A DNA stretch of 64,000 nucleotides from an uncultured virus (IMG/VR IMGVR_UViG_3300001544_000071) (IMGVR_UViG_3300001544_000071); one strand, 5' to 3'. Positions 1 through 58,263 are shown, numbered from the stretch's first letter. The notes: generated by a model not told the origin, from the sequence alone. Translations and numbers: made by a program.

Positions 1-95
1 TCCCTTGTCCCCCCTGTCTTTTTATTCCCTTGTCCCCCTGTCTTTTTATTCCCTTGTCCCCCTGTCTTTTTATTCCCTTGTCCCCCTGTCTTTTT
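1..95. repeat. Tandem repeat, 4 x 24 bp (TCCCTTGTCCCCCTGTCTTTTTAT)
   Basis: Directly visible; truncated by the window start. Confidence 0.95.
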
Positions 96-205
96 GTGTT
101 ATGTGAATAGAAGTATACTATTATAATTCACAGGTCAAAAATCGCGCGGCCAAAACGGTTGCAAAAAAACAAAAAATCAAAAAAGACTCCCCTCAGCAGG
201 AATGT

Positions 206-272
206 CGCATAACACATAGCGCATAACACATAGCGCATAACACATAGCGCATAACACATAGCGCATAACACA
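206..272 (+). repeat. Tandem repeat, ~5 x 14 bp (CGCATAACACATAG)
   Basis: Directly visible. Confidence 0.95.
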
Positions 273-279
273 AAATAGC

Positions 280-438
280 GTTATGCGCTATGTCTCCCCG
301 CTCCCCTTAGCGTTATGCGCAATTCCCCGTAACCCGATTCTGTTATGCGCAATTCCCCGCTCCCCTTAGCGTTATGCGCAATTCCCCGCTCCCCTTAGCG
401 TTATGCGCAATTCCCCGTAACCCGATTCTGTTATGCGC
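280..438 (-). repeat. Six GTTATGCGC cores at 29-32 bp spacing
   Basis: Cores at 280, 312, 342, 371, 400, 430; the core is the reverse complement of GCGCATAAC in the 206-272 array. Confidence 0.9.
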
Positions 439-658
439 AATAATTAACATATTCTCTTTTATCTTTTTGGAATAGTTTGCTACGCATAACAACACTAATT
501 GCATAACCAAAACAACCAACAAAACAAGTTTTATATTTAACCTGTTTTACCCAGTTACCTTGATTGTCTTGAAAATAGGGAATAATGAAAAAGTTATCTG
601 CGTTATGTAAAACTTCCCATTTTATCCCTTGCTTTTTAATTGTTTTTAAGACTTTCAT
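431..658 (-). CDS. Hypothetical protein (75 aa)
   Basis: ORF with AAGGGGG SD-like sequence upstream. Confidence 0.55.
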   Translation of the reverse strand: MKVLKTIKKQGIKWEVLHNADNFFIIPYFQDNQGNWVKQVKYKTCFVGCFGYAISVVMRSKLFQKDKREYVNYCA

Positions 659-668
659 AGAATCCCCC

Positions 669-717
669 TTAAAATGCTTAAAATATGCTTAAAATATGCT
701 TAAAATATGCTTAAAAT
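669..717. repeat. Tandem 11-bp repeat (AAAATATGCTT)
   Basis: Directly visible, ~4 copies. Confidence 0.85.
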
Positions 718-764
718 GTTGTTAATGTATACTTTTTCATACTTATTTGTCTACTTTTTCATAC

Positions 765-1583
765 TTTTTAGTATACTTCATTGCGCATAATGCGCTTGTT
801 AGTTGACATTTAGTATACTTAATGACGCATTTTCGTAAAATTAGTGGTGTATTGCACTGTATATTATACAAAAAACCCTATTTTTTAGGCTTTTTTGGCC
901 TATTTTTAAGTTAATATGTTGAAAAAACAACAAAAAACAAACAAAAAATGGCATAATCGGTCAAGACGGAACGCAAAAAACAGAGGAAAATGCCCATTTT
1001 TCGGTTTCTTTTTTTCGGTTAATTCCTTACCCTGTAATGACTTACGTGAAAGTATACTATTTTTTGCTTTATTATTATTCGTGTTTTTCACTCCAAAAAA
1101 TAATTTTTTTTTCAAAAAATCAGTAAAATAATCCTTTTTTCTTTTGTTTTTTTCAAAATTAAAACAAAAAGTACTAATCTAATTTAGTATACTATTTTGC
1201 TATACTATTTTTTGTATAGAGAAAAATAATAATTTTTTTTTATTTTTATAAAAAAACTGTTTTACACTGTTTGTATTTAATCAAATAATAGTATACTATT
1301 CCATAATTCCTTACTACATAACGACTTACGCCAAAAAACAAACAACAAAAAAGCCCAAAAAAGCCTTATTTTCATAATCGGTCATGGCCGATTATACCCA
1401 TTTTGGCCATTTTTTGGCCTTAATTTTGCTATACTATCATAAAAACAAGCTATTTTAACCCATTTTTAGGGCTTTTTTGCATTATTAACAGTGTAATACA
1501 CCACTAATTTTACGAAAATGCGTCATTAAGTATACTTTATAGCACATAACACGTTTGTTATACGACAAAAAGTATACTAAAAA
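765..1583. repeat. Long degenerate inverted repeat centred at ~1174
   Basis: 812-860 vs 1488-1536 match 48/49 as reverse complements; other symmetric islands share the same centre. Confidence 0.9.
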
Positions 1584-1620
1584 GCCCAGTTTTACCGCTT
1601 TTTTGGGCAAAACTGGGCTT
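1582..1620 (-). terminator. Putative intrinsic terminator
   Basis: AAGCCCAGTTTT...AAAACTGGGCTT hairpin just after the 1637 stop, with a T-run on the - strand. Confidence 0.6.
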
Positions 1621-1636
1621 AAAAATGTGCGATATT

Positions 1637-2620
1637 TTATAAAATACCGCTCACTTTTGATAAATTCGGCTTTTCGGCCATGAATCTTACAGCCATTTTT
1701 TCGGCTTTTTCGGCCATTTTTTGGCTTTCAAGTCTATGAACTATGTCAAGTAATTTATTCCTTGACACGTTTCCAAAATATCGGCTATTCATACGATTAA
1801 CCGATTTTTTCAGCGCATGGCCTAACCTTACTTTATTGGAAACCTGTTGTTTCCATTGAATAAGGTTAGCTATTTGTTTGCCACTTAACATGGCAAACAC
1901 ATTTTCAGTACCTACTTTTTCTAAGTTTTGCATAACAATATTTTCAGGGTTATATCGGTTATAATTCCTTGACGAACTAATACCGATTCCTACCCTTTCG
2001 TCAGTTGAAAGGCCGTTACATGCACTAAAGATTGTAACGGCTTTTTCGCTTTCAATAGCGAATAACCCACTGTCATACTCTGTTTTGGCAATTTTTAATT
2101 TATCACCAAAACATATAACATCGTCAATATTATTGACTATATCAATAAAATTGACTTCCATAGTCAAGTTTGACAGCCTTGAAAGCTGTCTCTTTTCTAC
2201 TTGGCTATCTTGAATACGCTCAATGGCCTCATTGAACGATAAGCCCTTGGCTTTTTCCCTGCGTATCCGATGTATTGCCGAGTTGTAACAATACATTGGA
2301 GACATATTCCTTGCTTTTTCAATCTTTGCAAGGATTTTTTCCATGTTTTTTTCTAGGCGTTCAATGTTAAAATCACCCTTTTTTTCTAAAGCATTTTTTT
2401 CCTCTTGCAATAAAAGAAACTTTTTTGTTTCTTTTTCTATTATTGCTTGGGGAATAAGGTACGCAATGGATAAAATATCCATAGCGTTTTTATAACCGAG
2501 ACTTAAAACAGTCTCGGTTAATGCTTGCCATGACAAGGCGTTTTTTTCTGCCTTGTCCATTTTTTGCCATGCTAGGCGCATGGCTTTAATTTTGTTTGCT
2601 TTTTCTACTGTCATTGTCAT
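1637..2620 (-). CDS. Putative divergent sigma70-family (ECF/sigma28-like) sigma factor
   Basis: AMDILSIAYL resembles region 2.2; YCYNSAIHRIRR resembles region 2.4; NPENIV...FAMLSGKQ resembles the linker/4.1; good SD (AAGGA). Confidence 0.5.
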   Translation of the reverse strand: MTMTVEKANKIKAMRLAWQKMDKAEKNALSWQALTETVLSLGYKNAMDILSIAYLIPQAIIEKETKKFLLLQEEKNALEKKGDFNIERLEKNMEKILAKIEKARNMSPMYCYNSAIHRIRREKAKGLSFNEAIERIQDSQVEKRQLSRLSNLTMEVNFIDIVNNIDDVICFGDKLKIAKTEYDSGLFAIESEKAVTIFSACNGLSTDERVGIGISSSRNYNRYNPENIVMQNLEKVGTENVFAMLSGKQIANLIQWKQQVSNKVRLGHALKKSVNRMNSRYFGNVSRNKLLDIVHRLESQKMAEKAEKMAVRFMAEKPNLSKVSGIL

Positions 2621-2669
2621 AGCGGTATCCTTTAACGTAATATTAAACTACACAAGTAGTTATACTTAT

Positions 2670-2698
2670 ATTATCGCATATTTTGTAAAATTAGTCAA
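2670..2698 (-). promoter_or_regulatory. Host sigma70-type promoter for the 1637-2620 gene
   Basis: TTGACT-N17-GATAAT on the - strand. Confidence 0.6.
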
Positions 2699-2738
2699 AC
2701 AATAATTGATTATTTTTTCAATTTTCTTAAAAATAATA

Positions 2739-2774
2739 GGCCATTTTACTACATTGTTGTATAGTAAAATGGCC
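2739..2774 (-). terminator. Putative terminator hairpin
   Basis: GGCCATTTTACTA...TAGTAAAATGGCC downstream of the 2853 stop. Confidence 0.55.
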
Positions 2775-2852
2775 ATATAAACTACTTTTTGCATTTTCGG
2801 CAAGTATGATACTTACCCTTAAAATGCTTAAAACAAACAACACAAACAACTT

Positions 2853-3191
2853 TCATTTTTCACCCCGTTTTACATACAATGGTATGTCAATGTTGAATCC
2901 ACGTACTAACAACCCAGTGTTTATATCCATATTGGTTACACTTTCACAGTTGTAATGGATATTGCCGTAATGGGCAATTAAGCAATGCTCAATATGCTCA
3001 TTGTGTTTTTTTGGCAATAGATTTTTAACAAGTTTCATCGAATTGCCTTTACACTCATACATCGCAAGATTAACTGTAAGGCGCAATACATTACCGTCAA
3101 TTGCATAATGGGCAATTTGAAAGCCTAGCCATTTAAGGCATTTGATAACGTCAATTGCATAATCGGCGTTAAGTTTTTTCGGTAGTTTCAT
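2853..3191 (-). CDS. Hypothetical protein
   Basis: ORF with AAGGAG SD. Confidence 0.75.
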   Translation of the reverse strand: MKLPKKLNADYAIDVIKCLKWLGFQIAHYAIDGNVLRLTVNLAMYECKGNSMKLVKNLLPKKHNEHIEHCLIAHYGNIHYNCESVTNMDINTGLLVRGFNIDIPLYVKRGEK

Positions 3192-3194
3192 TGG

Positions 3195-3644
3195 TTACTC
3201 CTTATATTCAACAAGTTTTTCAATTGTGTTGTATTTTAACCTAGTGTCAAAATACCTAATAAGTTCAACATCATTTGGTAAATGTAGTTTTGTTGAACTG
3301 TTGTTATTATCAACCCAATATCCACCGGATATTGTATTCTTTTTAACAATCAACAATGCACATTTATCAACCAAATAATAACCTTGAAAATTACCCATGT
3401 AACTATCTTCAATAGCCTGTAAGGTTTTTTCTGTTGCGTCTTGCAAGGCATAAAAACAAGCAAAACATAGGTTTTTTCCTTCCAGTGTGTCAAGGTTGAA
3501 AGAATACCTTATTGTATTTAACAAGTTTTCTTTAGGCTGTATTGTTTCACAGCACATACAATAAATTGCTTTTTCATCAGTAGTAAAGCAATTACAGCCA
3601 AAATGTGTACTTTCACAATAGGTACAGTTTTCAAGTGTTTTCAT
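3195..3644 (-). CDS. Hypothetical Cys-rich (zinc-finger-like) protein
   Basis: CxxC pairs; start moved to ATG 3644 behind an AAGAGGA SD. Confidence 0.7.
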   Translation of the reverse strand: MKTLENCTYCESTHFGCNCFTTDEKAIYCMCCETIQPKENLLNTIRYSFNLDTLEGKNLCFACFYALQDATEKTLQAIEDSYMGNFQGYYLVDKCALLIVKKNTISGGYWVDNNNSSTKLHLPNDVELIRYFDTRLKYNTIEKLVEYKE

Positions 3645-3672
3645 GGTTTTCCTCTTTAGTGTTTTGATACCC

Positions 3673-4047
3673 ATATAGGCAATAAAAAAGTAAAGTGAGA
3701 CATTTTTCTTAAAAATATTTTTTGTCCCATTTTGCTTTAAGGCAAAAAGATAAAGATTATTTTTTGTCCCATTTTGCTTTTTTATTGCCTATATTCCCGA
3801 TTTTCAAAAAATATAGGCAATAAAAAAGCAAAATGGGACAACTTTTATTTTTTGTCCCATTTTGCTTTAAGGCAAAAAGATAAAGATTATTTTTTGTCCC
3901 ATTTTGCTTTAAGGCAAAAAGATAAAGATTATTTTTTGTCCCATTTTGCTTTTTTATTGCCTATATTTTCAGCTTGCGCAAGGCAAGCAAAAAAGTTTCA
4001 CCTAACGGCAAGAAAAATGTCTCACCTGCATTTTTTATTGCCTATAT
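3673..4047. promoter_or_regulatory. Divergent promoter cluster: five full TGTC(T/C)CA-N10-TTATTGCCTATAT copies plus 42-bp direct repeats
   Basis: Copies at 3673-3702(-), 3765-3794(+), 3811-3840(-), 3937-3966(+), 4018-4047(+). Confidence 0.8.
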
Positions 4048-4092
4048 CAACGGAAACCAAAAAACAAAACTAATTTTAAGAGAGGTAACACA

Positions 4093-6479: not shown

Positions 6480-6977
6480 ATGCACTTTGAAAAAAAGATA
6501 AATACGAATAGCAGGAAAGCTATGACGGACTACCTGAAAAACCATTTTAGGTATCACACCATGAATAGCTGGAACGGAATGACCAGTTATGCCCATAATG
6601 TGAAAATATACAACTTGCCTTTAACTACACAGGAAAAGGAAAAAGTGTATGAACTTATGGAACACCCTGCCTTTTATGAGGTCATTTATGACAGGCTTGC
6701 TGATTTTAACGAAAAAGGCTTTGAAGCAGGGTTTAATGGGCGTTCAAATGGGTATTTGGTACTGTATCCGAGGGAAAGTTGGGAGCTTGACAAACATGCC
6801 AATTACAGCGAATGGACAATGGAGGAATTAAGGGAACGTGTTAGATTGTTGCAAAGGTTCGCCAGACTTGCCGATGACATCATTGAAGAAGTCAGGTGGA
6901 TGGCGAATAACATGGAATTGGTGGAAGAAGAAATCCAAGTTACCAAGAAGGTAAAAGTACTCAAGGAGAAAACATGA
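6480..6977 (+). CDS. Hypothetical phage protein (HFRYHTMNSWN...GRSNGYLVL)
   Basis: GGAGG SD. Confidence 0.8.
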   Translation: MHFEKKINTNSRKAMTDYLKNHFRYHTMNSWNGMTSYAHNVKIYNLPLTTQEKEKVYELMEHPAFYEVIYDRLADFNEKGFEAGFNGRSNGYLVLYPRESWELDKHANYSEWTMEELRERVRLLQRFARLADDIIEEVRWMANNMELVEEEIQVTKKVKVLKEKT

Positions 6978-7462
6978 CATTAAAGCAGTTTAAGGAAAAA
7001 TACAAAGGCAACCGTATTGCACAATACAATAACTCTTTCGATATGTTGAAAGTTCTTGTAGGTGATATTGCGTTTTTCACGTCTTTGCGTAAGGCCGTGC
7101 CGAAGAAAGACAGGTACACACGGCAGAACTATGACGAAGCAATAAGGGCATTGGAACAGTTGAAGCAGGACGTAGAAACTATTCAAGAACCGGTATTGTG
7201 CAAAACGTGTAAGGCAGAGCTTGAAGACCTGACAAGTAACAAGTATTGTGATGTTTGCTGGGGTGATATGCGTAAAGTGGTTGTTACTACGGTATTGCAT
7301 GTTCCTTCTGCTGTAACAGAAAAAGACGTGCAGGAAGCCGTGCAAAACAGGCTTAATATCGCAGGACAGCGTGAAGACGTGTTTAATATGGATTGCCTTG
7401 CTTCTTGCGATATTGGGAGTGTCAGCGTGTACGGCAGGCGGAGTTTAGGGAAAAACAACTAG
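6974..7462 (+). CDS. Hypothetical protein
   Basis: ATGA coupling; AAGGAG SD. Confidence 0.75.
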   Translation: MTLKQFKEKYKGNRIAQYNNSFDMLKVLVGDIAFFTSLRKAVPKKDRYTRQNYDEAIRALEQLKQDVETIQEPVLCKTCKAELEDLTSNKYCDVCWGDMRKVVVTTVLHVPSAVTEKDVQEAVQNRLNIAGQREDVFNMDCLASCDIGSVSVYGRRSLGKNN

Positions 7463-7653
7463 CCCTTGCGTAAGGGTGATGCCGAATTGATAGTAGGTGT
7501 TGTTTATATAATGTAAGGCTTCCGTAACAGGAAGCCGTTTTTATAAAACACATAAAGTTTATCAGCCTGTCAGCGGCGAAGGAGACGGGACACAGCTTTT
7601 GCTAGATACTTTATGTGTTTTATAAAAGCAGACTGCTTTTTTTGAAAGATTTT

Positions 7654-7683
7654 TGTCTCATTCTTAAAAATTATTGCCTATAT
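7654..7683 (+). promoter_or_regulatory. Phage promoter motif
   Basis: TGTCTCA-N10-TTATTGCCTATAT before ATG 7701. Confidence 0.85.
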
Positions 7684-7700
7684 AGGCGAAGGAGAAAAAT

Positions 7701-7910
7701 ATGAAAATATGGCAACAGGGAGATTGGACAGTTGTGGAACACAAATTATTCGGGGAAATCGGGCAGAGCGGTATGCCCAAAACTGTGGGTTCGGTTTTTG
7801 AGTTGTTTTCAACTGAAACCGATTATGACCAAGGCATGTTTTTTAATGCTATAGACCCTGCCGTAGCGTATGGGGAAAAATTGGCACAGGAGGATTTGGA
7901 AAATGAATAA
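7701..7910 (+). CDS. Hypothetical protein
   Basis: AAGGAG SD. Confidence 0.75.
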   Translation: MKIWQQGDWTVVEHKLFGEIGQSGMPKTVGSVFELFSTETDYDQGMFFNAIDPAVAYGEKLAQEDLENE

Positions 7911-8499
7911 AGATAAACCTGTAGTTGTAGGCAGAGGCACACAACTTTTCAACGAATTACGCTGGCTTGGGAAAGTTATCAACAAGGATAGAGATGTTTG
8001 GCAGGTACTCCATGTGGAACATACAGAGGACGAAATTATCCTTGTAACCACAGATGGGCGCAGGCTTCACAAGGTTCAAACAAAACTTGGTACGTTATGT
8101 CATCCAAAGTTTTTGCCGGCTGGGGATTATATGTTCGAGAAAAATAACGATAAGGAAGTTGTGTTGACATCGTATGATATACAGTATCCGAATTGGCGGC
8201 GTGTTACGCCGGAAGGCAATCCCGAACATTTTCCGAAGTATTTGTACACAATCGACTTGAAAATACCGGAGTACACGACAAACGACAAAAGTAATTTTTC
8301 CGTTGCTTTCGGCCAGCTTACACTTTTGACCGACACGATATTTGATTTACGGTACATAGAAGCAATGGCTGACGATGACAGGTACTGGACAATAAAGTGG
8401 TATAGCAAGAAGTATGCCTTTTTGTTCAGTAACGGTATCCGGCACGCCTCTATTATGTCCAAACAGGATATGGTAATGCAGGAAGTGAGAAAGTTGTAA
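7903..8499 (+). CDS. Beta-sliding-clamp-like domain protein
   Basis: LVTTDGRRL and YPNWRRVTP resemble the DnaN motifs ATDGHRL and FPDYxRVIP. Confidence 0.5.
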   Translation: MNKDKPVVVGRGTQLFNELRWLGKVINKDRDVWQVLHVEHTEDEIILVTTDGRRLHKVQTKLGTLCHPKFLPAGDYMFEKNNDKEVVLTSYDIQYPNWRRVTPEGNPEHFPKYLYTIDLKIPEYTTNDKSNFSVAFGQLTLLTDTIFDLRYIEAMADDDRYWTIKWYSKKYAFLFSNGIRHASIMSKQDMVMQEVRKL

Positions 8500-8508
8500 G
8501 GAGAGTTT

Positions 8509-9261
8509 ATGGAAACCGTTATTAACAAAATTGTTATGCCGGGTTGGATTGATAAAAAACCGGTGTTTGTGCGTATAAATTACAACACACCGGAACAAAA
8601 AAGAATGAACACACATATAAGGCCGGAAGGGGACAGCAACGAATTGTCTATAACCGGCGTGGTTAATCCAAAATCCAACGGCAATGCCGATAGAGGCGGA
8701 CAATGCGACAATGCGCTTTTGGAAATCGACACCTATAACGAAAAAGAAGGTTGGACAAGAGAAAATGTGGTAGAGCTTTACAGGATATGGAATAAATACC
8801 ATCTTAACCACATGAATCCGGGCTGCCCATGCACAGACCATATCGATATGACGCAGAAAATACCTGTTTATAGTTATGGATACGGCAACAAACATCGTAT
8901 CATGGAAGAACACATTTTAAGCGGTAGATGTGTTGACTATACCGAGTACCTTAACATTGCCAAGAAAATGCGCAGGACTGATTACTATGTTTGCGATAAC
9001 TATCTTGACAGCCCTGAACACAATCCCGAAGTGTTGGTTTTGATTGAAGAAGGGTATCTTGAGGTGCGTGCGCAGGTAGAACAAAAGGCTGTGGGTTGGG
9101 TAGATTATACCAAACATCCAGAGGGCTGGTTGTTAAGGCCATGTCCTGTGTGCGGATATAAGTACGGTTCTGAATGGACAAGAAGGGACATTCCTACCGA
9201 AGTTTTGCAATGGCTTGTTGACCTTCCCGAAACACAAGTGAGGTACGCATGGAAAAAATAG
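8509..9261 (+). CDS. Hypothetical phage protein (GGQC...HLN...CPVCGYKYG)
   Basis: AAGGAG SD; zinc-ribbon motifs. Confidence 0.8.
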   Translation: METVINKIVMPGWIDKKPVFVRINYNTPEQKRMNTHIRPEGDSNELSITGVVNPKSNGNADRGGQCDNALLEIDTYNEKEGWTRENVVELYRIWNKYHLNHMNPGCPCTDHIDMTQKIPVYSYGYGNKHRIMEEHILSGRCVDYTEYLNIAKKMRRTDYYVCDNYLDSPEHNPEVLVLIEEGYLEVRAQVEQKAVGWVDYTKHPEGWLLRPCPVCGYKYGSEWTRRDIPTEVLQWLVDLPETQVRYAWKK

Positions 9262-9662: not shown

Positions 9663-9710
9663 TATACAAGGCAGAGGGAGTTTCCTTCTGCCTTTGTAGT
9701 TTTCAAGTAC

Positions 9711-9790
9711 TTTTCAGATATTTTTTAGATATTTTTTAGATATTTTTTAGATATTTTTCAGATACTTTTCAGATATTTTTCAGATATTTT
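9711..9790. repeat. Tandem 11-bp repeat (TTTTT(T/C)AGATA), ~7 copies
   Basis: Directly visible, immediately upstream of a promoter motif. Confidence 0.85.
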
Positions 9791-9791
9791 T

Positions 9792-9821
9792 TGTCTCATT
9801 TTGATTTTTTATTGCCTATAT
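9792..9821 (+). promoter_or_regulatory. Phage promoter motif
   Basis: TGTCTCA-N10-TTATTGCCTATAT. Confidence 0.85.
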
Positions 9822-10146: not shown

Positions 10147-10461
10147 TTGGGAGGAATAGTGAAAAAAGACCGGAGTTTACAAGCTGTTATTGGAATAATA
10201 GCAGTAACTTCCCTTATTGTGGGTGTGTCGGTATTCTTGTTGTTTTCTTTTATGGGCAGACAGCCTGAACCACCGCCCCCGCCTAGAACGTTTGTTGTAG
10301 ATTTTCGCAGGCTTGACGACAGGTGGGCTTTGGCGAATTATTATGTCTTAACGTATGTTATAGACAAGCGGCCTTATGAGATAATTAGCCGGAACAGGGG
10401 AAGGCTGGAGCAACTCGTAAGGATAATCGACCCGAATTGGCGATGTAATTTCGTTTATTAA
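10147..10461 (+). CDS. Hypothetical membrane protein
   Basis: N-terminal TM helix, Pro-rich linker; exact start uncertain. Confidence 0.65.
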   Translation: MGGIVKKDRSLQAVIGIIAVTSLIVGVSVFLLFSFMGRQPEPPPPPRTFVVDFRRLDDRWALANYYVLTYVIDKRPYEIISRNRGRLEQLVRIIDPNWRCNFVY

Positions 10462-10470
10462 GGAGACAAA

Positions 10471-10956
10471 ATGAAAGTACTTACACAAAAACAAGCGGAC
10501 AATATAGCCAGAGACCTTGTTACTGCTTGTGCGGATATTAAAAAGCTGTCTGAAAATGCTTACGCTTTTATAAGCACTTCAAATGGCTTTGCATGTCATA
10601 ACAATAGGATAGGTTTTCAATTAGCACACCGAGAACCCGGACGACTTAGAGCAAAGATTTTGGAGCATAAGGAGCGTAACCAATACACGGCTTTTGAAAA
10701 AGGGAGCAAGCATTATAAATATTATAAACAGAAAAGAGACATTTATAATGTTGTTTGTCAGATACTTGAAAATCAAAGAGCGTTCACATACACTCTTGTT
10801 GAAACGTCAAGGCGTATTATTAAGGTATATGTGTACGCTTCCAGCGAAAAGGCAGCCAGAACTTTCGTAGCCGAGAATCCGAGAGCTTACACTCTGCTTC
10901 GTGATGATTCGCTTTCTGTTGACTATATGTTCCACCCGGAGAATACAAATGGATAG
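10471..10956 (+). CDS. Hypothetical protein
   Basis: AAGGAG SD. Confidence 0.75.
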   Translation: MKVLTQKQADNIARDLVTACADIKKLSENAYAFISTSNGFACHNNRIGFQLAHREPGRLRAKILEHKERNQYTAFEKGSKHYKYYKQKRDIYNVVCQILENQRAFTYTLVETSRRIIKVYVYASSEKAARTFVAENPRAYTLLRDDSLSVDYMFHPENTNG

Positions 10957-11194
10957 AGAACAGGAAGTGCTTTTGTGGATGGTCGCACAAATCCACACAT
11001 GGGAGCGGTCGCCACATGAAATAATCGGCAGGGCAGCAGCTTTGGTTAAATTAACCGGAGTCGGACAAGACGTTGTAGAAGATATTCGCCGGGGTTCCGG
11101 CGCAGGGCTGGAAGAAATGTTAAAAAAGATATTTCCGGGGGCTGTTGTTGCGCCTGTAGAGTTTGAAAGAGAAGGAGAAGAAAATGTTGATTGA
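10949..11194 (+). CDS. Hypothetical protein
   Basis: Coupled ORF; GGAG SD. Confidence 0.6.
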   Translation: MDREQEVLLWMVAQIHTWERSPHEIIGRAAALVKLTGVGQDVVEDIRRGSGAGLEEMLKKIFPGAVVAPVEFEREGEENVD

Positions 11195-12182
11195 ACAATT
11201 TTCAGATGTTTTTCCGTTTGGTGTTTGCGACCAGTGCGGATATGAGTTTAACAGCGAAGAACGTAATGAGTACGAATACCGCAAATGTCCTAAATGCGGG
11301 GAAGATTTAGGTTTAGGCGACCCACATGAAGACGATGGGCAGTATAAGAGGAATCTGGAAAAATTGCGGGAATTGGTTGCTGTTGAAAAAACTGTGTTAT
11401 GTGATTCTTGCGGAAAGGAAGCAGATTTTAACAATTTGGGCGGTAACTGTACCATGTGCGGTGATGACCTTTGTGTTGATTGTGCTATGTGGCCAGAGAC
11501 CGGAGAGTGTAAAAGTTGTGTTCAAAATGCTTTAAGTTTATACGGAAAGGCGTGGCAAGAACTAACAGGCATTATTGGACGTGGTGAACACCCTACATGG
11601 GAACATTTACGCACACACTATTTCAAGAAGCAATATGAGGCTGTTCGTAAACATGCAAAGCAGGGCAATCCTTTGCCTTTATTAAAAGAGGCAGAGGCCG
11701 GCGCAGGCATGGAAATGGACAGCGGTGCTTTTGTATCCGGCGGAAAAAAATCTGACGCAGGAAAATTGCGCTGGGACTTACTGCCTTTAGAAGCCTTGGT
11801 TGACACAGTTAAGCGTTTTACTTTCGGAGCAATCAAATATTCCGATAATAACTGGAAACAACCGCCACATAATCCCGATAAGTTCTATGCAGGACTTATG
11901 AGACATATTGAGGCATGGCGAAGCGGTAAGCGTGATGACATAGACGAAACAGGAAACATAACAAGCCACATATCCGGCGTTATCTGGAACGCCATTGCTT
12001 TGCAGTGGTTTGAGATACAGGAAAAGAACCACAAGTGGAAATGTCCGTCTTGCGATGACCCGGCCTGTACACAATTGCTTACAACACTTTGCAGAGAAAA
12101 GCAGCACTGGAAGGAAGATAAGCCAACTGTACCGGTGTCAAGCATGGCATGGTTTCCTAATCACATGAAAAATAAGCCATGA
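11184..12182 (+). CDS. Zinc-finger / dATP-dGTP diphosphohydrolase (DUF5664-type) fusion
   Basis: KSDAGKLRWDLLP...GAIKYSDNNW...LMRH...SH..WN signature; multiple N-terminal CxxC. Confidence 0.8.
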   Translation: MLIEQFSDVFPFGVCDQCGYEFNSEERNEYEYRKCPKCGEDLGLGDPHEDDGQYKRNLEKLRELVAVEKTVLCDSCGKEADFNNLGGNCTMCGDDLCVDCAMWPETGECKSCVQNALSLYGKAWQELTGIIGRGEHPTWEHLRTHYFKKQYEAVRKHAKQGNPLPLLKEAEAGAGMEMDSGAFVSGGKKSDAGKLRWDLLPLEALVDTVKRFTFGAIKYSDNNWKQPPHNPDKFYAGLMRHIEAWRSGKRDDIDETGNITSHISGVIWNAIALQWFEIQEKNHKWKCPSCDDPACTQLLTTLCREKQHWKEDKPTVPVSSMAWFPNHMKNKP

Positions 12183-12294
12183 GTATAAATTACTACGGCA
12201 AAAAGTATGTTCGTGTGTGGTGGCTTGTAGTCGCCACACTATTTGGATTTAATGCAGGGATTTTATTCCTGCTAATTTTAACAGGGGGTATTTA

Positions 12295-12612
12295 ATGGTC
12301 GAGAAAATAAAAAAAGAGTGGAACGGCTACATGGCCGCCAAAAAAGCGGTAGAGCAGATAGAGCCGAAAAGCATTGAAGTTATCAATTCAGACAATTTGG
12401 AATATCGCAAAAACTCGAATAATTCAAGAAAAGGCGTTGGTTTTGGTTTTTCTCCGGGCGACAGATTTATCAGAGTGTGGAACTTATATGAAGGCAGTGG
12501 ACAACAAATGATGAGCGTTCACCTTGACAACATTACAGCCGTCATTGAAGCCTTGACGCTTTTCCAGTCCGGGGACATAAACAACCTGCCGGAAGGTTGG
12601 CACTCGGTATGA
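12295..12612 (+). CDS. Hypothetical protein
   Basis: ORF with SD. Confidence 0.7.
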   Translation: MVEKIKKEWNGYMAAKKAVEQIEPKSIEVINSDNLEYRKNSNNSRKGVGFGFSPGDRFIRVWNLYEGSGQQMMSVHLDNITAVIEALTLFQSGDINNLPEGWHSV

Positions 12613-17619: not shown

Positions 17620-19398
17620 GTGTCGGACGACCCGAAGAAAATATTAACGAAGTTCAAGTCTATTTTTTCCGGCGCACAGGATAGATTTACAATCCATGTA
17701 CCGCCGTTTACGCATAATGAGAAAAAACACAAGCAAGACGCTTCATGGGTGGGTTGGGCGCAGTACGGAAAAGCATCGTTCAAAGATATTCCTGACGGCT
17801 ATGAGCCGGGCGATGATGTTCCGGTAACAACAGAGCAATATAAAGCGCACTTAAATGGCGAAATGGGGCTTGCGCTTTCACCTTTAGTTCCGACAGTTGT
17901 GCTGTCTGACGGCGCAAAAGAAAATGTATGCGCTTACGGTATTATTGATATTGATACTTATGGTGTCAATTACACTTTTCTTATACAGAAACTGTACGCA
18001 AGCGGTTTCCAATTTGCAGCGTTCATGTCCAAATCCGGTGGCTTGCACATTTACTTTATGTTCAAGACCTACGAACCGGCGGCAGAAGTACGGCAGGTGT
18101 TGCTTGACCTTATAAAACTGTTTGGTTTACCCAAGCTGTACAAAGACGAAAAAAACGGCACATCCAAAGTAGAAGTATTTCCTGACCACGGAGAACGCAA
18201 GCCGGGAATGAAAGATAAATGTATCTTTCTACCGTTTTTTGATGCGTTAGGCGAATGTCCAAATAAAATGATTACAGCGGAAGGCAAGCTGGTAGGAATA
18301 ACCAAGGCTTTACCGCTTATTGAGAAGCAGTTTACAACCTTAAATGAGGTCAAGGCTGTTATATCCGCCTTGCCGTATTCTGATGCGCCCTATTGTATCC
18401 AAGCTGCCCTTTTGAACGGTGCGCTTTGGGAAGGTTCACATCGCAATGATTTTTTGTTTACTGTTGCTCTTTATCTTAAACTAAAGCACGGTAAGGATGC
18501 TTTCACCCTAGAAATGCTGGCGGAAGCTAACAGCAGGTTTGAAGAACCTCTGGAAGCAAAGCATGTAGAAACGTGCCACAGAAGCGCGTCCGAGGGGGAT
18601 TTTCCTCTGCTTGGGCAGTGCAAAAAAGAACCTATGGCTACGTTTTGCGACAGGGTAGCTTGTAAAGAAAGAAAATATGCTGCGGTCAAAAAAGACAAAA
18701 ATAACGTAGCGTCCAACATTGAGTTCGGACAAGTGTTTCGTATGAAAGCGGAAACGCCATACTATTTGCTGGAAGCAAGATTGGCCGGAGATGAAGGTGA
18801 TTTTAAGGTATTACGTGTCGATGCTGCTGAAAACTTTTTGAACCAAAAAACAATACAAAAAGAGTGTGTTGATAAATTGGGGCAAATAATGTGGACAGTG
18901 AAACAACAGGTATGGGAGGAGCGAGTAAATGCTGTACTGCAAAACTTACAAGAAAAAGAAGTGCCGAAAGAAATTGACACTTCGGAATTGTCTGATTTAC
19001 GTGAATTGTTTCATAGATACCTTACGCATAAATGCGCTTCGATTAACACCCCTAACCGTATCAATCTTAAACAAGTTTACTTTGCAGATGGGGTTTATTA
19101 TTTCAAGAATGACGGGGTAAAAGACTATCTGCGAATAGCCAAGTATACGTTAGGCAGAGTAAACTTGACGGAAGAATTAAAGCGTTTCGGTTGCACCGAA
19201 GGCGAAGTAAGCTGGATACGCAAAGACGGTACTTTAGCTGTTGTTAAATGTTGGATGAAACAAGAAGACGATGTGTTAAAAGAAATGACTCGTTTCTTCG
19301 ATGACGTTGTTGACGAAGATGCGGAGATAATAGCACAAAACAAATTAAACAAAGGGGGAGACGATGGGGAAGCAGAAAAAGAAGAAAGACGTTTCTGA
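17620..19398 (+). CDS. AEP-family DNA primase
   Basis: IDID, SKSGGLHIY, HRNDFLF (PriCT-like) motifs. Confidence 0.8.
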   Translation: MSDDPKKILTKFKSIFSGAQDRFTIHVPPFTHNEKKHKQDASWVGWAQYGKASFKDIPDGYEPGDDVPVTTEQYKAHLNGEMGLALSPLVPTVVLSDGAKENVCAYGIIDIDTYGVNYTFLIQKLYASGFQFAAFMSKSGGLHIYFMFKTYEPAAEVRQVLLDLIKLFGLPKLYKDEKNGTSKVEVFPDHGERKPGMKDKCIFLPFFDALGECPNKMITAEGKLVGITKALPLIEKQFTTLNEVKAVISALPYSDAPYCIQAALLNGALWEGSHRNDFLFTVALYLKLKHGKDAFTLEMLAEANSRFEEPLEAKHVETCHRSASEGDFPLLGQCKKEPMATFCDRVACKERKYAAVKKDKNNVASNIEFGQVFRMKAETPYYLLEARLAGDEGDFKVLRVDAAENFLNQKTIQKECVDKLGQIMWTVKQQVWEERVNAVLQNLQEKEVPKEIDTSELSDLRELFHRYLTHKCASINTPNRINLKQVYFADGVYYFKNDGVKDYLRIAKYTLGRVNLTEELKRFGCTEGEVSWIRKDGTLAVVKCWMKQEDDVLKEMTRFFDDVVDEDAEIIAQNKLNKGGDDGEAEKEERRF

Positions 19399-22502: not shown

Positions 22503-22688
22503 ATGCCCGGCAGAAAGAATAAATCCAAACCGGATAAAACAATTGAAGAACTGCGGCGCAGGATTGATGACCCTGCATACATGCAAGCGGCTATTGAAGG
22601 GCTGGCGGAAAAGCTGGCTAAGGAAGTAACGAAAAATGAAAGTAAGAGAAGTATCACTCGATATAGAAACGTCAGACCCGTTACTTGA
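22503..22688 (+). CDS. Small protein resembling the C-terminus of FlgM anti-sigma
   Basis: IEELRRRIDDPAYMQAAIEGLAEKL; weak SD; overlaps polA start. Confidence 0.4.
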   Translation: MPGRKNKSKPDKTIEELRRRIDDPAYMQAAIEGLAEKLAKEVTKNESKRSITRYRNVRPVT

Positions 22689-24891
22689 CGACACCGGCCC
22701 AAGCTGGACACATGGACAGGGCAAGGTACTTGTTACCGGGCTGTACGATGTAGCAAAAAAGAGAGCCGGGTACATAGATGGGGCAGGCGGAAAAACTGTC
22801 CGGGAAATGTTTACTTCTGCTTCTACGACAATCATTGGAGCAAAAGTACAGTATGATGCCGGTTGGCTTGTGCATGAACACGGCCTTGACTGGCGTGATG
22901 TGAAATGTAATTTTATTTGTGTTCAAATAGCTGAAAGTCTGGTTGACCAATACCAGCCTTTTAAGCTCGATGATTTAGCATGGAAATACCTGAAAGAACG
23001 AAAAGGCGCAGGGGATTTACCAAGGATTTGCGCATCGCTTGGATTAAAAGGCGATTTTAGAAAACATCTTGCAACGCTTTGGGAAAAAGGTGAAAAATAT
23101 CGTGCTTTAATACGAAATTATTGTGTCAGCGATGCAGACCAACCGGCGCGGATTTGGGAAAAGCAGAAGAAAATCCTTGAAGAAACCGGGCAGATGGAAG
23201 CGTTCATTATAAACATGAAAATGCTGAAAGCCATGTGTAAAGCGAAAGCTCGCGGTGTACGGATTGATTATGAACGCTGGCAACACAATTGTAAGGTTGT
23301 AAAAGAGATACATGATAAATTGTCCGAGCAGTTCCACAGGAAGTACGGTGAAGTAAACTTGCGAAGCCCAAAACAAATGGGCGAGTTTATGACCAAACAT
23401 AACGTTCCTTTCAAATGGCGTATAACGGTGCGCGGTTTAGAACCGGATGAAGTTATTACTGAAAAGGTTTATAAAAAAACTGGAATTAAAAAAATAACAA
23501 AAAAGTCCGGGTTCAAAGTAGGCCAGCATGGTTTTGAAGGGACGCAGGTTGCGGAGCATCGCAAAAAACTTAAAGACGATTTTCCGACTATCCGCATAGA
23601 AAAAGATAAACTTAAAATCTATGAGGATGACCAGTACAAAGAAAGAACATTAACGCAGCTTACAGCTAAAGGGTACAACGTAATTGTCGGTCCTTGTATT
23701 GACAAGTATTTTTTGCTGGAAAACAAGCATACGCATCCAATCGTAGCCGACCTTGTTGAGTATAAACAGGTGAAGGATATAATCAGCAAGTTTTTGGGCG
23801 AGAAGTTTGGTCGATACTTGGTATATCATAAAAGCAAGAAGGAGTGGCGACTACATGCAAACTTCAATCCGGTGGGAGCTAGACAAACCGGCAGGCTATC
23901 ATCGAATGGGCCGAACCTACAAAACATTCCGTCAAAAACTGTTCTTTTTGCGGGAACTGAATATGAGGTTGATTTGTCCGTTATGTGCCGTGAAATCTTC
24001 CTGCCGGAAAAAGGACACATTTTTGTTAAGCTGGATTTTTCCGGTCAGGAAAACAGGCTGCAAGCGCATTTCGCGGTGGGAGCAAGCGGTAGACGTATTA
24101 GAAAAATGTACCGTGATAATCCGAGGCTGGATGAACACAAGTTTGTCGGAGAAGCATCAGGACTCGTTGAGGAGTTCGGACCGGACAAAGGACGAAAGTT
24201 CGCAAAAAACGTGCGCTTTGGGCTTTCATACGGTATGCAACTCATTCGGATGTGCTTACAGTTTGGGTGGGTTAAGGACTTTGCCCAAAAGCTGTCAGAT
24301 GCGGTTAAGGACGCTTCCCCGTGGTTCGTAGAGACAATGGAAGAAGTACAGGCAGTTGTACGTGAGCGTGGCTACATAATAACGCTCTTAGGCAGAAGAA
24401 TATGGCTAAAAGGCTGGAAGAATATGTCTAAAGCCGAACTTGCTTTTGCCAAAGTCTACGCCTTCTACAACTACCTTATACAAGGTTCAGCGTCAGACCA
24501 AACCAAAGCCTGTCAGGTAGCCTGTGACGAGACGGAGACAGAGGAAAGATTACTGCTGACCGTACACGATGAGGGAGATTTCTCTCTGCCTATGACAAAA
24601 GCTGGATTAGCAAGGCTTAAAGAGCTTGTACGGATACACTGTGAAACCCTACCGATTGATGTGCCTGTTATTTGCGACCCGGAATTGGGAACAGATTGGG
24701 CGCATCTTGAAGGGCAAAAGCTGGATAACAACGGATACCCAACAGAAACTATTGACGAACTGTGGGAACGTATGTGTAAAATAGTTGAGTCGGGTGAAAG
24801 AGCCAAGCCCCGCATATTCGACTTGGCGGATATAGAAGACTTGGAAACTGATGAAGATGAGGAGGAAGATGAAGATGTAGAAGTAGCGTGA
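22636..24891 (+). CDS. polA: DNA polymerase family A
   Basis: Exo LDIET; TGRLSS.GPNLQNIP; motif A LDFSGQE; motif B AKNVRFGLSYG; motif C VHDE. Confidence 0.95.
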   Translation: MKVREVSLDIETSDPLLDDTGPSWTHGQGKVLVTGLYDVAKKRAGYIDGAGGKTVREMFTSASTTIIGAKVQYDAGWLVHEHGLDWRDVKCNFICVQIAESLVDQYQPFKLDDLAWKYLKERKGAGDLPRICASLGLKGDFRKHLATLWEKGEKYRALIRNYCVSDADQPARIWEKQKKILEETGQMEAFIINMKMLKAMCKAKARGVRIDYERWQHNCKVVKEIHDKLSEQFHRKYGEVNLRSPKQMGEFMTKHNVPFKWRITVRGLEPDEVITEKVYKKTGIKKITKKSGFKVGQHGFEGTQVAEHRKKLKDDFPTIRIEKDKLKIYEDDQYKERTLTQLTAKGYNVIVGPCIDKYFLLENKHTHPIVADLVEYKQVKDIISKFLGEKFGRYLVYHKSKKEWRLHANFNPVGARQTGRLSSNGPNLQNIPSKTVLFAGTEYEVDLSVMCREIFLPEKGHIFVKLDFSGQENRLQAHFAVGASGRRIRKMYRDNPRLDEHKFVGEASGLVEEFGPDKGRKFAKNVRFGLSYGMQLIRMCLQFGWVKDFAQKLSDAVKDASPWFVETMEEVQAVVRERGYIITLLGRRIWLKGWKNMSKAELAFAKVYAFYNYLIQGSASDQTKACQVACDETETEERLLLTVHDEGDFSLPMTKAGLARLKELVRIHCETLPIDVPVICDPELGTDWAHLEGQKLDNNGYPTETIDELWERMCKIVESGERAKPRIFDLADIEDLETDEDEEEDEDVEVA

Positions 24892-57057: not shown

Positions 57058-58263
57058 CTACCCCCTATTGAGTGCGCTTCCAAGAATGAACGCACCATCT
57101 TCAAGTAATTGAGTATCCACACCATCTTCGGTGCGAGTACCTTCCTTTTCTTTCTCTTTGGATTTTTCATCACCCTTAATACCAAGAGCAGTTTTGACTT
57201 GGCCTGTAACAGCCTTTTCAATCATGCCGGCAATACTATCAGTAATGCGTTTCTCCTGTTCGGCAAACATTTCTTCGATAGTTTTTTCTTTACTATCGGT
57301 TGTTTTCTTGCCTTCTTCTTTTTTGCCTTCTTCTTTCTTTTCAGGTTCACCGGCAGCATCTTGTGTTTTCACACCAGCTTTTTCAAACAGTTTTTTAATA
57401 CTGTCATCTGCCGTAGTAACCGAAGCCGCATCTGCGTATGCTTGGTCAAGAACCCTAGCAACGTCATCTGCTTTCAGCAACGCCTCTACTGGATGCGTCA
57501 GCGCATCTTGGACAGCCCCGGAGAGAATGTCTTTAGCATCCCCATCAGGCAATCCAGCCATGTGAGCCGAAATGTCGCCGACAAGTTTTTCTTTGCCAGC
57601 AGCATCCAAAGTATGCAAGGTTCTTGCGCCCTCTAGGACAATCTTAGAAAACGAAAAGCCCTCGTCTTTGGTTCGGCCAATGCCAAGAAAAGATAATACA
57701 CCTTTCTTTCCTGCCATATTTATGCCTCCAAACGATATATTGGGCGCTTTATCCTGCACCCTGACTTGTGGCCCACCGCGACCGCGAGCCGTAATCACTA
57801 CTCCATTTACAGAAAGTATATCTTTAAGAATAAAATCGTATTGTCCCGTAATATCGGGAATTGCAACACTTCTGTAATCTGCACTTGTTTCTTTGTTACC
57901 TTGAAGGTAATACTCATAACTGTCTTTGGTATAAAAAGCCATCTTTCCAAATATACCAATCTCACCGCCTTCAAGTTCTCTTTTAATTATATTTTCACCT
58001 ATGATACCTGATGCCTGTAATCTAAAATTATCAGGGTCAGTTTCGCTAGGAGTATGTTCTTTTGTTACAACAGCGAAGGCGAATTTGTCCTTACAGCGTT
58101 CAATCACTTCTTTAGGCCGGTACTCCGTATACCACATCTTTTTAACAGCAGGAGTAAACCCACGTTGTATCATCTCATCATAAGTATAGTTATAAACACC
58201 GCTGCGCGCTAAACACGCTTCTTTAATTGCGAGCGCAGGATGTTTGTCAGCCACTCTCATCAT
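57058..58263 (-). CDS. Head maturation protease/scaffold (DUF2213-like)
   Basis: ARSGVYNY...YRP...EH...ETSADY...RGRGG..VRV.D. Confidence 0.85.
   Translation of the reverse strand: MMRVADKHPALAIKEACLARSGVYNYTYDEMIQRGFTPAVKKMWYTEYRPKEVIERCKDKFAFAVVTKEHTPSETDPDNFRLQASGIIGENIIKRELEGGEIGIFGKMAFYTKDSYEYYLQGNKETSADYRSVAIPDITGQYDFILKDILSVNGVVITARGRGGPQVRVQDKAPNISFGGINMAGKKGVLSFLGIGRTKDEGFSFSKIVLEGARTLHTLDAAGKEKLVGDISAHMAGLPDGDAKDILSGAVQDALTHPVEALLKADDVARVLDQAYADAASVTTADDSIKKLFEKAGVKTQDAAGEPEKKEEGKKEEGKKTTDSKEKTIEEMFAEQEKRITDSIAGMIEKAVTGQVKTALGIKGDEKSKEKEKEGTRTEDGVDTQLLEDGAFILGSALNRG

Follow-up and report, generated by a model that had tools for sequence, protein, structure and literature searches.

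In HSV oriL and oriS, in the SV40 core origin and in archaeal origins with inverted ORB elements, inverted initiator sites flank an AT-rich centre, and the whole is set between diverging transcription units. These palindromes measure from tens to about 150 bp and are often perfect. P1 oriR carries DnaA boxes at both of its ends. Symmetric sites also serve transcription control in the phi29 early/late switch and in lambda OL/OR, where copies of a dyad site are arranged around or between outward promoters and a multimeric nucleoprotein complex is formed.

The iss region of phage T5 is described as 1.2 kb of untranslated DNA in which direct repeats, inverted repeats and palindromes are nested, and its inverted repeats carry eight DnaA boxes in symmetric positions (10.1101/866236). 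The same account reports the nest to be conserved among 25 T5-like phages and places it away from the mapped T5 origins (10.1101/866236). For the PLE satellite, a repeat-rich non-coding region between divergent operons is described as shown experimentally to be the origin (PMC7145576). A repeat-rich, AT-rich and partly palindromic control region or origin is, as a kind of element, already known.

Here, we compare with these systems a locus from an uncultured virus (IMGVR_UViG_3300001544_000071). The whole stretch of DNA analysed, hereafter the window, is 64,000 nucleotides long, and its gene content indicates that it is the genome of an uncultured phage without a close cultured relative. A degenerate, ungapped palindrome occupies positions 764–1584. 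We regard it as the central part of a non-coding control region where the early (replication) genes give way to the late (packaging and structural) ones, and propose, tentatively, that its most likely function is that of a bidirectional replication origin.

The arms of this palindrome are 320 nt long and degenerate and its centre is asymmetric, which sets it apart from the HSV, SV40 and archaeal origins, and no protein homology connects it to them. Compared with the phi29 switch (roughly 220 bp) its scale is larger, its promoter calls are weak and its regulator is only postulated; there is no gene between its arms, unlike lambda, where cI lies between the operators. With iteron/DnaA-box theta origins such as that of PLE, as far as the published account describes the latter, it shares an AT-rich stretch and clustered repeated sites in non-coding DNA between operons. 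The differences are that its symmetry spans 820 bp with the best-kept sites 627 bp apart, that no known initiator gene is adjacent and that DnaA boxes (at most one mismatch) are absent from positions 1–4000 of the window; an origin role is a prediction. The likeness to the T5 iss region, within what is described of it, lies in more than 1 kb of untranslated, nested repeats and palindromes whose layout is conserved within a phage group. Against the approximately eight symmetric DnaA boxes of T5, the window has none, while one relative (G002) has three and four in its inverted repeats. The T5 region further differs in being part of the long terminal repeat of a 121-kb genome, with partner repeats kilobases apart; in the material described, no genes were seen to be shared with the window phage, whose own sites are not DnaA boxes.

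The Phage Genome and the Surroundings of the Palindrome

The window encodes a family-A DNA polymerase (PolA; 22636–24891), an AEP primase with a PriCT-1 domain (17620–19398), UvrD-like and SNF2-like helicases, a portal protein (58260–60110) and a head protease, and is without terminase genes. PolA is at most 27% identical to that of any phage in the collection, positions 1–4000 had no match among INPHARED phages by blastn, and searches for rRNA, tRNA and Rfam families returned no matches in the window. Two DNA sequencing runs of a single sample, perhaps its own source, match the window with shares of 0.97 and 0.94 and a further run with 0.18, while no RNA run was listed. Gene orientation is rightward between about 4.1 and 30.6 kb and leftward from there to 64 kb. 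The palindrome sits in a non-coding stretch of 1.6 kb; a leftward early operon ends on one side of it, and relatives carry their packaging/late operon on the other. The features around it are the following.

1–95, no strand: four 24-bp tandem repeats, cut by the window start
112–119, no strand: AGTATACT site, the eighth, outside the palindrome
206–441, no strand: head-to-head iteron arrays, GCGCATAA facing TTATGCGC
431–658, minus strand: 75-aa ORF, ribosome-binding site GGGGG; the promoter-like site of the left arm is 150 nt upstream
660–720, no strand: five 11-bp A-tract repeats (AAAATATGCTT), flanking the left arm
764–1584, no strand: the whole degenerate, ungapped palindrome; 212/321 complementary per arm in the ungapped scan; 26.6% GC
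1583–1620, minus strand: hairpin with a 10-bp stem (GCCCAGTTTT/AAAACTGGGC) followed by a T-run; read from the sequence, not called by a tool
1650–1629, minus strand: second hairpin, called by a tool; with 1620–1583 it ends the leftward early operon
1637–2620, minus strand: orphan ORF of 327 aa adjoining the palindrome; no relative found

A recurrent motif, TGTC(C/T)CA...TTTTTTATTGCCTATAT, stands at the starts of the rightward early genes, and its part TTGCCTATA is found at 3785, 3957, 4038, 6449, 7674, 9812 and 14811. The motif occurs twice on the minus strand (3674–3702 and 3812–3841), and the leftward genes of 159, 112 and 327 aa (3674 to 1637) are therefore assigned to a leftward early operon. 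To judge by this motif, the divergent early-promoter region is 3675–4090 and not the palindrome. Across viral_contigs, the early-promoter 17-mer gave 79 single, scattered matches, none of them multi-copy, and these are taken as chance. The hairpin at 1583–1620, which abuts the right arm, is likely the terminator of the leftward operon.

The 327-aa product matched nothing in Pfam (above cut-off), PHROGs, NCBIfam or PDB sequences and had no usable match in the ESM Atlas (pLDDT of its own model, 0.49), and viral and metagenome contigs held no related locus. The other neighbours of the palindrome (112, 159 and 75 aa) likewise had no family match, so that all four are orphans; the AEP primase gene is 16 kb away. 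In the iteron arrays, GCGCATAA repeats over 219–261 with a 14-bp period, and six copies of TTATGCGC follow over 281–431 in steps of 29–32 bp. This iteron is nearly confined to the region, with 11/12 window copies inside 1–800.

Geometry of the Palindrome

In an ungapped scan of the window, 764–1584 is the top-scoring long-range inverted repeat (score 103). Its bases pair around a single centre at 1174, where 57.7% of 409 pairs are complementary; the next-best of 100 centres scanned reaches 37.4%. All of the element pairs that a preliminary description of this DNA had assigned to one centre near 1174 were found at their positions, every pair summing to 2348. Complementarity is unevenly spread over the arm: 32/48 pairs at 764–811, 88/159 at 861–1019, 29/41 at 1020–1060 and 17/30 at 1061–1090, around a core at 812–860 that matches 1488–1536 at 48/49 positions, the single mismatch being the one already described. 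A repeat search reported the outer 115 nt of the arms at 81%.

That the intervening arms align without gaps although they have diverged is borne out. With the core left out, 134/230 pairs (58%) match over 861–1090. At other offsets the same stretch gives 67.4 ± 8.8 matches (maximum 89; z 7.6), and shuffles in 20-nt blocks give 76.2 ± 6.0 (maximum 99 of 5000; z 9.6). By both the offset test and this test against local composition, the likeness of the arms thus extends well beyond the 49-nt core, and the possibility that identity outside it is no better than that of composition-matched shuffles can be set aside. Gapped global alignment of the arms places gaps only in the asymmetric centre, save for one compensated 1-nt pair, and 320 nt per arm are kept in register without an indel despite the divergence. 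An assembly chimera is excluded by the degeneracy of the arms and by the recurrence of the feature in independent assemblies.

What has been conserved? Transversions dominate among the 96 mismatches in 861–1090, and few mismatches are compatible with G–U pairing (10 on the plus strand, 19 on the minus strand). The divergence had been described as often A to T; the count was right (38/96, 39.6%) but carries no extra meaning, as base composition predicts 35.5%. Because the mismatches fit composition and show no compensatory change, it is the sites and their spacing, rather than base pairing, that appear to be conserved, in agreement with the earlier proposal: the islands stay in register while the spacers have diverged. 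A structured RNA or cruciform is accordingly not indicated, pairing in the arms outside the islands not being kept by compensatory change. Rfam has no match in 764–1584, and the strong single-strand fold (z −14.6) is a necessary consequence of the cores.

The central 167 bp (1091–1257) had been called asymmetric and very AT-rich, and are both: 23/83 pairs are complementary over 1091–1173, the level of chance, and GC is 14.4%. Of all 150-nt intervals in the 64 kb, the one poorest in GC (13.3%) falls in the palindrome region. This asymmetric centre led us to reject a protelomerase target of the N15 telRL type, for which a perfect palindrome would be expected; a scan of 56 window ORFs against PHROGs gave no match to a protelomerase family. 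A bias of T-tracts to one strand in both arms was also rejected (T-runs to A-runs, 7:6 on the left and 8:4 on the right). A-tracts in the arms show no clear phasing at 10–11 bp (power about 1.3). A direct periodicity of 239 bp in the sequence is not notable either (36% identity against a mean of 30 ± 3%); only the sites described below are evenly spaced.

Sites Within the Palindrome

The features within the palindrome are the following.

770–777, no strand: AGTATACT site, outer left, 42 bp beyond the core copy at 812; mirror partner of 1571–1578
783–795, no strand: GCGCATAATGCGC, an inverted pair of the GCGCATAA iteron
812–860, no strand: 49-nt conserved core, left copy
839–812, minus strand: sigma-70-like TTTACG-16-TATACT in the left core, facing outward
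953–960, no strand: ATAATCGG island, left; mirror CCGATTAT at 1388–1395
1020–1044, no strand: 25-bp dyad with half-sites TAATTCCTTAC and GTAATGACTTA
1051–1058, no strand: AGTATACT site, inner left, 6 bp from the dyad 1020–1044
1091–1257, no strand: asymmetric, extremely AT-rich centre, a candidate unwinding element
1186–1193, no strand: AGTATACT site in the asymmetric centre, 15.5 bp from the symmetry centre
1290–1297, no strand: AGTATACT site, inner right, 6 bp from the dyad 1304–1328
1304–1328, no strand: second copy of the 25-bp dyad
1374–1395, no strand: local dyad ATAATCGG-N6-CCGATTAT that has the right island inside it; read from the sequence
1488–1536, no strand: 49-nt conserved core, right copy, mirror of 812–860
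1509–1536, plus strand: sigma-70-like TTTACG-16-TATACT in the right core, facing outward
1571–1578, no strand: AGTATACT site, outer right, 42 bp beyond the core copy at 1529

In 64 kb there are eight copies of AGTATACT, all of them within 112–1578, against an expected 0.79; none of 100 shuffles reaches eight. The copies at 812, 1051, 1290 and 1529 follow one another in steps of exactly 239 bp, and the outermost two lie beyond the core copies by a distance equal to four helical turns. Mirror symmetry at the inner sites extends beyond the word itself (AGTATACTAT at 1051–1060 against ATAGTATACT at 1288–1297), and the dyad at 1020–1044 also appears as a direct repeat with 1304–1335 (78% in the repeat search). 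As exact patterns, a 33-mer of the core is absent from viral_contigs and a 23-mer from metagenome_contigs. Dyad sites at mirror-equal spacing around an easily melted centre have, as far as sequence can tell, the anatomy of a large symmetric protein–DNA complex.

Palindromes at the Same Place in Related Phages

The comparison with related phages that had been suggested uncovered independent assemblies with long-range inverted repeats at the same genomic place. One relative, G001 (an IMG/VR contig of 69.5 kb), was found by its primase and five more records by a PolA profile; the AEP primase, UvrD, PolA and the SNF2 helicase are common to the window and all five. G001 is syntenic with the window almost from end to end and was assembled as a permuted circle. 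Its palindrome (scan score 106) has 158-nt arms at 84% and a 139-nt spacer in a stretch of 25% GC, with a hairpin on the early side and the first late-side gene starting directly at the other. It has no sequence similarity to the window palindrome and no AGTATACT, carrying its own palindromic words instead. G002 has a 1.3-kb palindrome (7226–8570; 187/214 and 140/174). The best long-range palindromes of G005, G004 and G003 are 55/59, 35/41 and a weak 58/89, respectively. The most distant whole record from the PolA search, G006, was set aside: it lacks both a long inverted repeat and a match to this TerL, and its 123-bp end repeat, in sequence of 44–61% GC, looks like a circular-assembly overlap. 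The relatives' palindromes occupy an AT-rich gap just upstream of the operon with a conserved terS-like gene, TerL and portal.

A TerL profile retrieved 26 loci, from which near-duplicates (L048, L052, L060, L062) and loci with too little upstream sequence (L040, L041, L043, L050, L055, L056, L063) were dropped. An inverted repeat scoring at least 29 lies upstream of TerL in 14 of the 15 non-redundant loci, as against 2 of 14 equally long downstream controls; the exception, L044, scores 18 and is at a contig end. The spans of these repeats are 18–33% GC in loci that are themselves 40–55% GC. These are inverted repeats of unrelated sequence, and the palindrome is a clade-wide character that has been retained in position as its sequence changed. 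The centres hold tandem repeats in G004, G002, L045 and L047, and a family-wide motif search in the arms returned TA-rich words only. The best cultured TerL match (33%), Tetrasphaera phage TJE1, has a different layout with only short dispersed repeats.

Six loci of the L047 subclade are alignable. Their arm cores are nearly invariant, while the outer parts of the arms differ and change on both arms together: 21 of 70 positions have changed on both, as against 11.8 ± 2.2 in shuffles (0/500 reach this number) and 3–9 when the partner arm is slid. This concerted change indicates that the likeness of the two arms is maintained, whether by selection on sites, by pairing or by gene conversion. As support for an origin it carries a caveat, since this subclade has two inverted-repeat regions and the one aligned is the farther from the late operon, not the one that abuts it.

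Possible Functions

In a palindrome that keeps its place but not its sequence, what is the role of the symmetry? A replication origin is ranked first on account of the AT-rich centre, the tandem repeats, the identical sites in inverted orientation, the DnaA-box arrays of G002 and the position in a non-coding gap between transcription units. The left arm of G002 has three DnaA boxes (at most one mismatch) and a fourth copy with two mismatches, the right arm has four (at most one mismatch) in the opposite orientation, and the spacing within the arms is 10–11 bp; these arms account for 6/8 of the genome's exact TTATCCACA. Such phased arrays in opposite orientation resemble theta origins, and were found in one of the six whole relatives. 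In the window, the inverted core and dyads of either side would be occupied by an initiator or accessory protein specific to the phage, for which the AEP primase or the product of an orphan neighbour gene are candidates. The two flanking complexes would then melt the AT-rich centre, loading replication machinery for each direction; in G002, arrays of host DnaA boxes would take the place of phage-specific sites. The cores may also carry twin outward promoters, of which the left one would face the 75-aa ORF and the late side.

The preliminary description had already suggested a bidirectional origin, a prediction that gains from the DnaA arrays of one relative and from AT-rich, repeat-bearing centres but loses from GC skew and from the T5 precedent. 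It had also named a packaging/terminus site and a recombination locus, and all three are candidate functions. An expected skew switch at 1174 did not appear: skew is −0.23 over 1–2000, −0.10 over 2001–4000 and +0.23 beyond, switching near 4000 with gene direction and tracking the gene strand. This weakens the case for an origin, in a test that is itself weak because coding bias dominates. The T5 iss region, as described, indicates that a phage palindrome may contain DnaA boxes without being an origin, which weakens the case further. Also against an origin here, the repeat-rich non-coding region at 3675–4090, the true point of divergence, is an equally placed candidate, and no initiator can be named among the orphan neighbour genes.

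We consider it possible, although rather doubtful, that this clade of PolA/AEP-primase phages as a whole uses a symmetric origin, with inverted initiator-loading sites, an AT-rich, repeat-bearing centre and recruiting sites that have been swapped between lineages. Its layout may be that of two identical sites hundreds of bp apart at the early/late gene boundary, and the sites may be host DnaA boxes in one lineage and, in that of the window, AGTATACT and the 49-bp core at fixed 239-bp spacing. By analogy, such an origin may be the bacterial-virus counterpart of the archaeal and herpesvirus palindromic origins.

The symmetry could instead belong to control of late-operon transcription, with twin outward promoters in the cores under a dimeric regulator bound to the AGTATACT dyads. 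One dyad lies over each −10 and a second 42 bp downstream; the sites between may allow looping, and the left promoter may serve the late genes and the right one a short transcript or one antisense to the incoming early operon. The outward TTTACG-16-TATACT with AGTATACT covering the −10 in both cores, the spacing of four helical turns and the 75-aa ORF with its good ribosome-binding site downstream of the left site fit this arrangement, as does the position of the palindrome region immediately before the late/packaging operon in relatives. In G001, a promoter-like TTGACT-16-TAATAT site for the first late-side gene, read from the sequence, overlaps the outer end of the arm; in G002, a TTGTTA-17-TATATT site stands ahead of the first late gene; and in L039 the outer inverted repeat consists of two diverging copies of an upstream motif that recurs in that phage. 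However, promoter-like calls are not enriched (20 in the window against 17.4 ± 5.0 in shuffles, 15 in G002 against 9.9 ± 3.3), and AGTATACT, being absent from the rest of the 64 kb, is no late-promoter element of general use. No −35 stands at a suitable distance from any of the six remaining AGTATACT sites, by our reading the arms conserved within the L047 subclade contain no conserved sigma-70-like promoter, and transcription from the right-hand promoter would meet a terminator and a gene that converges on it. The DnaA-box arrays and the tandem repeats of the centres would also be left unexplained. On balance we hold transcription control to be somewhat unlikely as the function of the palindrome.

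A DNA-entry or packaging signal, either a counterpart of T5 iss or a pac/cos site near the genome ends that may be recognised by the small terminase, is clearly unlikely. The seven DnaA boxes in the inverted arms of G002 do resemble the T5 iss region, palindromes lie 1.4–5.6 kb upstream of TerL in every relative, and several contigs, the window among them, end in or near the palindrome region. But between the palindrome and the conserved terS-like gene there are one to three genes, which is unusual for pac/cos, and assembly by itself would be expected to break contigs close to inverted or tandem repeats. G001 was assembled across its palindrome, its contig ending inside a gene far away, and the other end of G005 cuts the primase gene, so that the ends of G005 are not physical termini. 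In the T5 account, moreover, the role of the region is itself put as a hypothesis (10.1101/866236). Very unlikely, in turn, is a decaying, functionless inverted duplication in which pieces of other elements (promoter, terminator) were kept alike, perhaps through gene conversion. An identity of only 55–58% outside the islands would suit decay, and the concerted arm change in relatives could equally be gene conversion; 320 nt per arm without an indel at that divergence, and several separate islands rather than one, would not. Inverted repeats of unrelated sequence at 14/15 loci would moreover call for repeated retention or renewal. Most improbable is an invertible switch, in which a recombinase crossing at the 49-bp repeats would flip the 627-bp segment. 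Inverted 49-nt repeats do flank a segment of asymmetric content, but no recombinase or invertase family was matched by the 56 window ORFs scanned against PHROGs, nor any recombinase by the 33 ORFs of 431–30675 scanned also against Pfam; the symmetry runs through most of the supposedly invertible segment, and the centre has the same orientation in 6/6 relatives of the L047 subclade.

Novelty and Significance

A full-text literature search returned no description of the clade or the element, and database searches returned no relative. The element is new in its size, in a degenerate symmetry that has no gaps and whose sites are evenly spaced, and in a position conserved across the clade while the sequence there is replaced. 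The function of the palindrome we infer from sequence. If it is an origin, it would give a phage group seen only in metagenomes a recognisable, position-conserved landmark for replication starts, and its relatives would form a natural series in which the same architecture carries different recognition sites, useful for understanding how an origin comes to use another initiator. Should it prove to be a transcription switch or an entry signal, it would be a second large nested-palindrome element beside the unexplained iss region of T5, and the open T5 question would become testable by comparison. Either way, the long non-coding stretch is a constrained element and not filler.

With regard to the proteins that might bind such sites, one word of the window's 25-bp dyad, GTAATGAYTTAC, recurs in both arms of the L039 repeat and nowhere else exactly in the 652,589 bases of family sequence scanned. 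Noticed post hoc, this may be a lead to a shared binding protein.

Evenly spaced sites and iteron arrays at the left end

In the degenerate palindrome (764-1584, centred on 1174), four copies of AGTATACT, at 812, 1051, 1290, and 1529, are separated by a step of exactly 239 bp. Mirror symmetry alone does not demand this even step, and the sequence of the palindrome region as a whole shows no 239-bp periodicity, only the AGTATACT sites being evenly spaced. A second dyad-organized cluster of sites lies 0.5 kb to the left, where head-to-head iteron arrays occupy 206-441; GCGCATAA(C), with a 14-bp period, faces six copies of TTATGCGC, and the two arrays meet at ~275. TTATGCGCA is a single position away from the relaxed consensus of the DnaA box.

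Early-promoter elements within the window

Five copies of TTTTTTGTCCCATTTTGCTTT, the early-promoter motif's upstream half, lie on the + strand at 3716-3960, within the divergent early-promoter region, and in three of these the -10-like part is replaced by AAGGCAAAAAGATAAAGATTAT. The 24-bp repeats at 1-95 are similar to this half. Two facing copies of the motif at 3764-3795 (+) and 3841-3810 (-) form a near-perfect 32-nt inverted repeat, with a gap of 14 bp between their -10-like ends, and may act as paired promoters that exclude one another. Hits of Rfam's generic hairpin models to this segment (3762-3843) stay below threshold. A further copy, at 9792-9820, lies directly downstream of eight 11-bp repeats, TTTT(C/T)AGATAT (9707-9790), which share their design with the 11-bp repeats adjoining the palindrome (660-720).

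Elements in related genomes

In the relative L039, represented by its TerL locus, a motif of the form ..GCCTATAGGCAAT..AACCGGATAAAA is repeated ahead of each small early gene.

Copies of the early-gene motif in L039
11-50, motif copy
362-400, motif copy
750-795, motif copy
1108-1148, motif copy
1365-1410, motif copy
2225-2270, motif copy, inverted

The GCCTATA core of this motif matches TTGCCTATA of the window's early-promoter motif, and this match therefore suggests a promoter element common to the clade.

In G002 (L021), the relative with a 1.3-kb palindrome, TerL (10220-12586) is 788 aa long vs. ~457 aa in relatives. Its match is split in two, at 10220-11422 and at 12410-12583; this points to an insertion, e.g., an intein or homing-endonuclease domain. 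A direct duplication of ~140 bp (6560-6700 and 6850-6990) is found immediately left of the palindrome of this genome. Another stretch, at 1720-2248 (around 1984), is palindromic or of low complexity (164/264).

Other features of the window

The ORF at 11163-12182 encodes a dATP/dGTP diphosphohydrolase N-terminal domain (PF18909, E 2.7e-22). Among the scanned ORFs of the window no match to a PurZ-like protein was obtained, and hence nothing points to a Z-base pathway. At the right end, near a tail-fiber-like ORF, lies a second long-range inverted repeat (63145-63225/63802-63882, 62/81).
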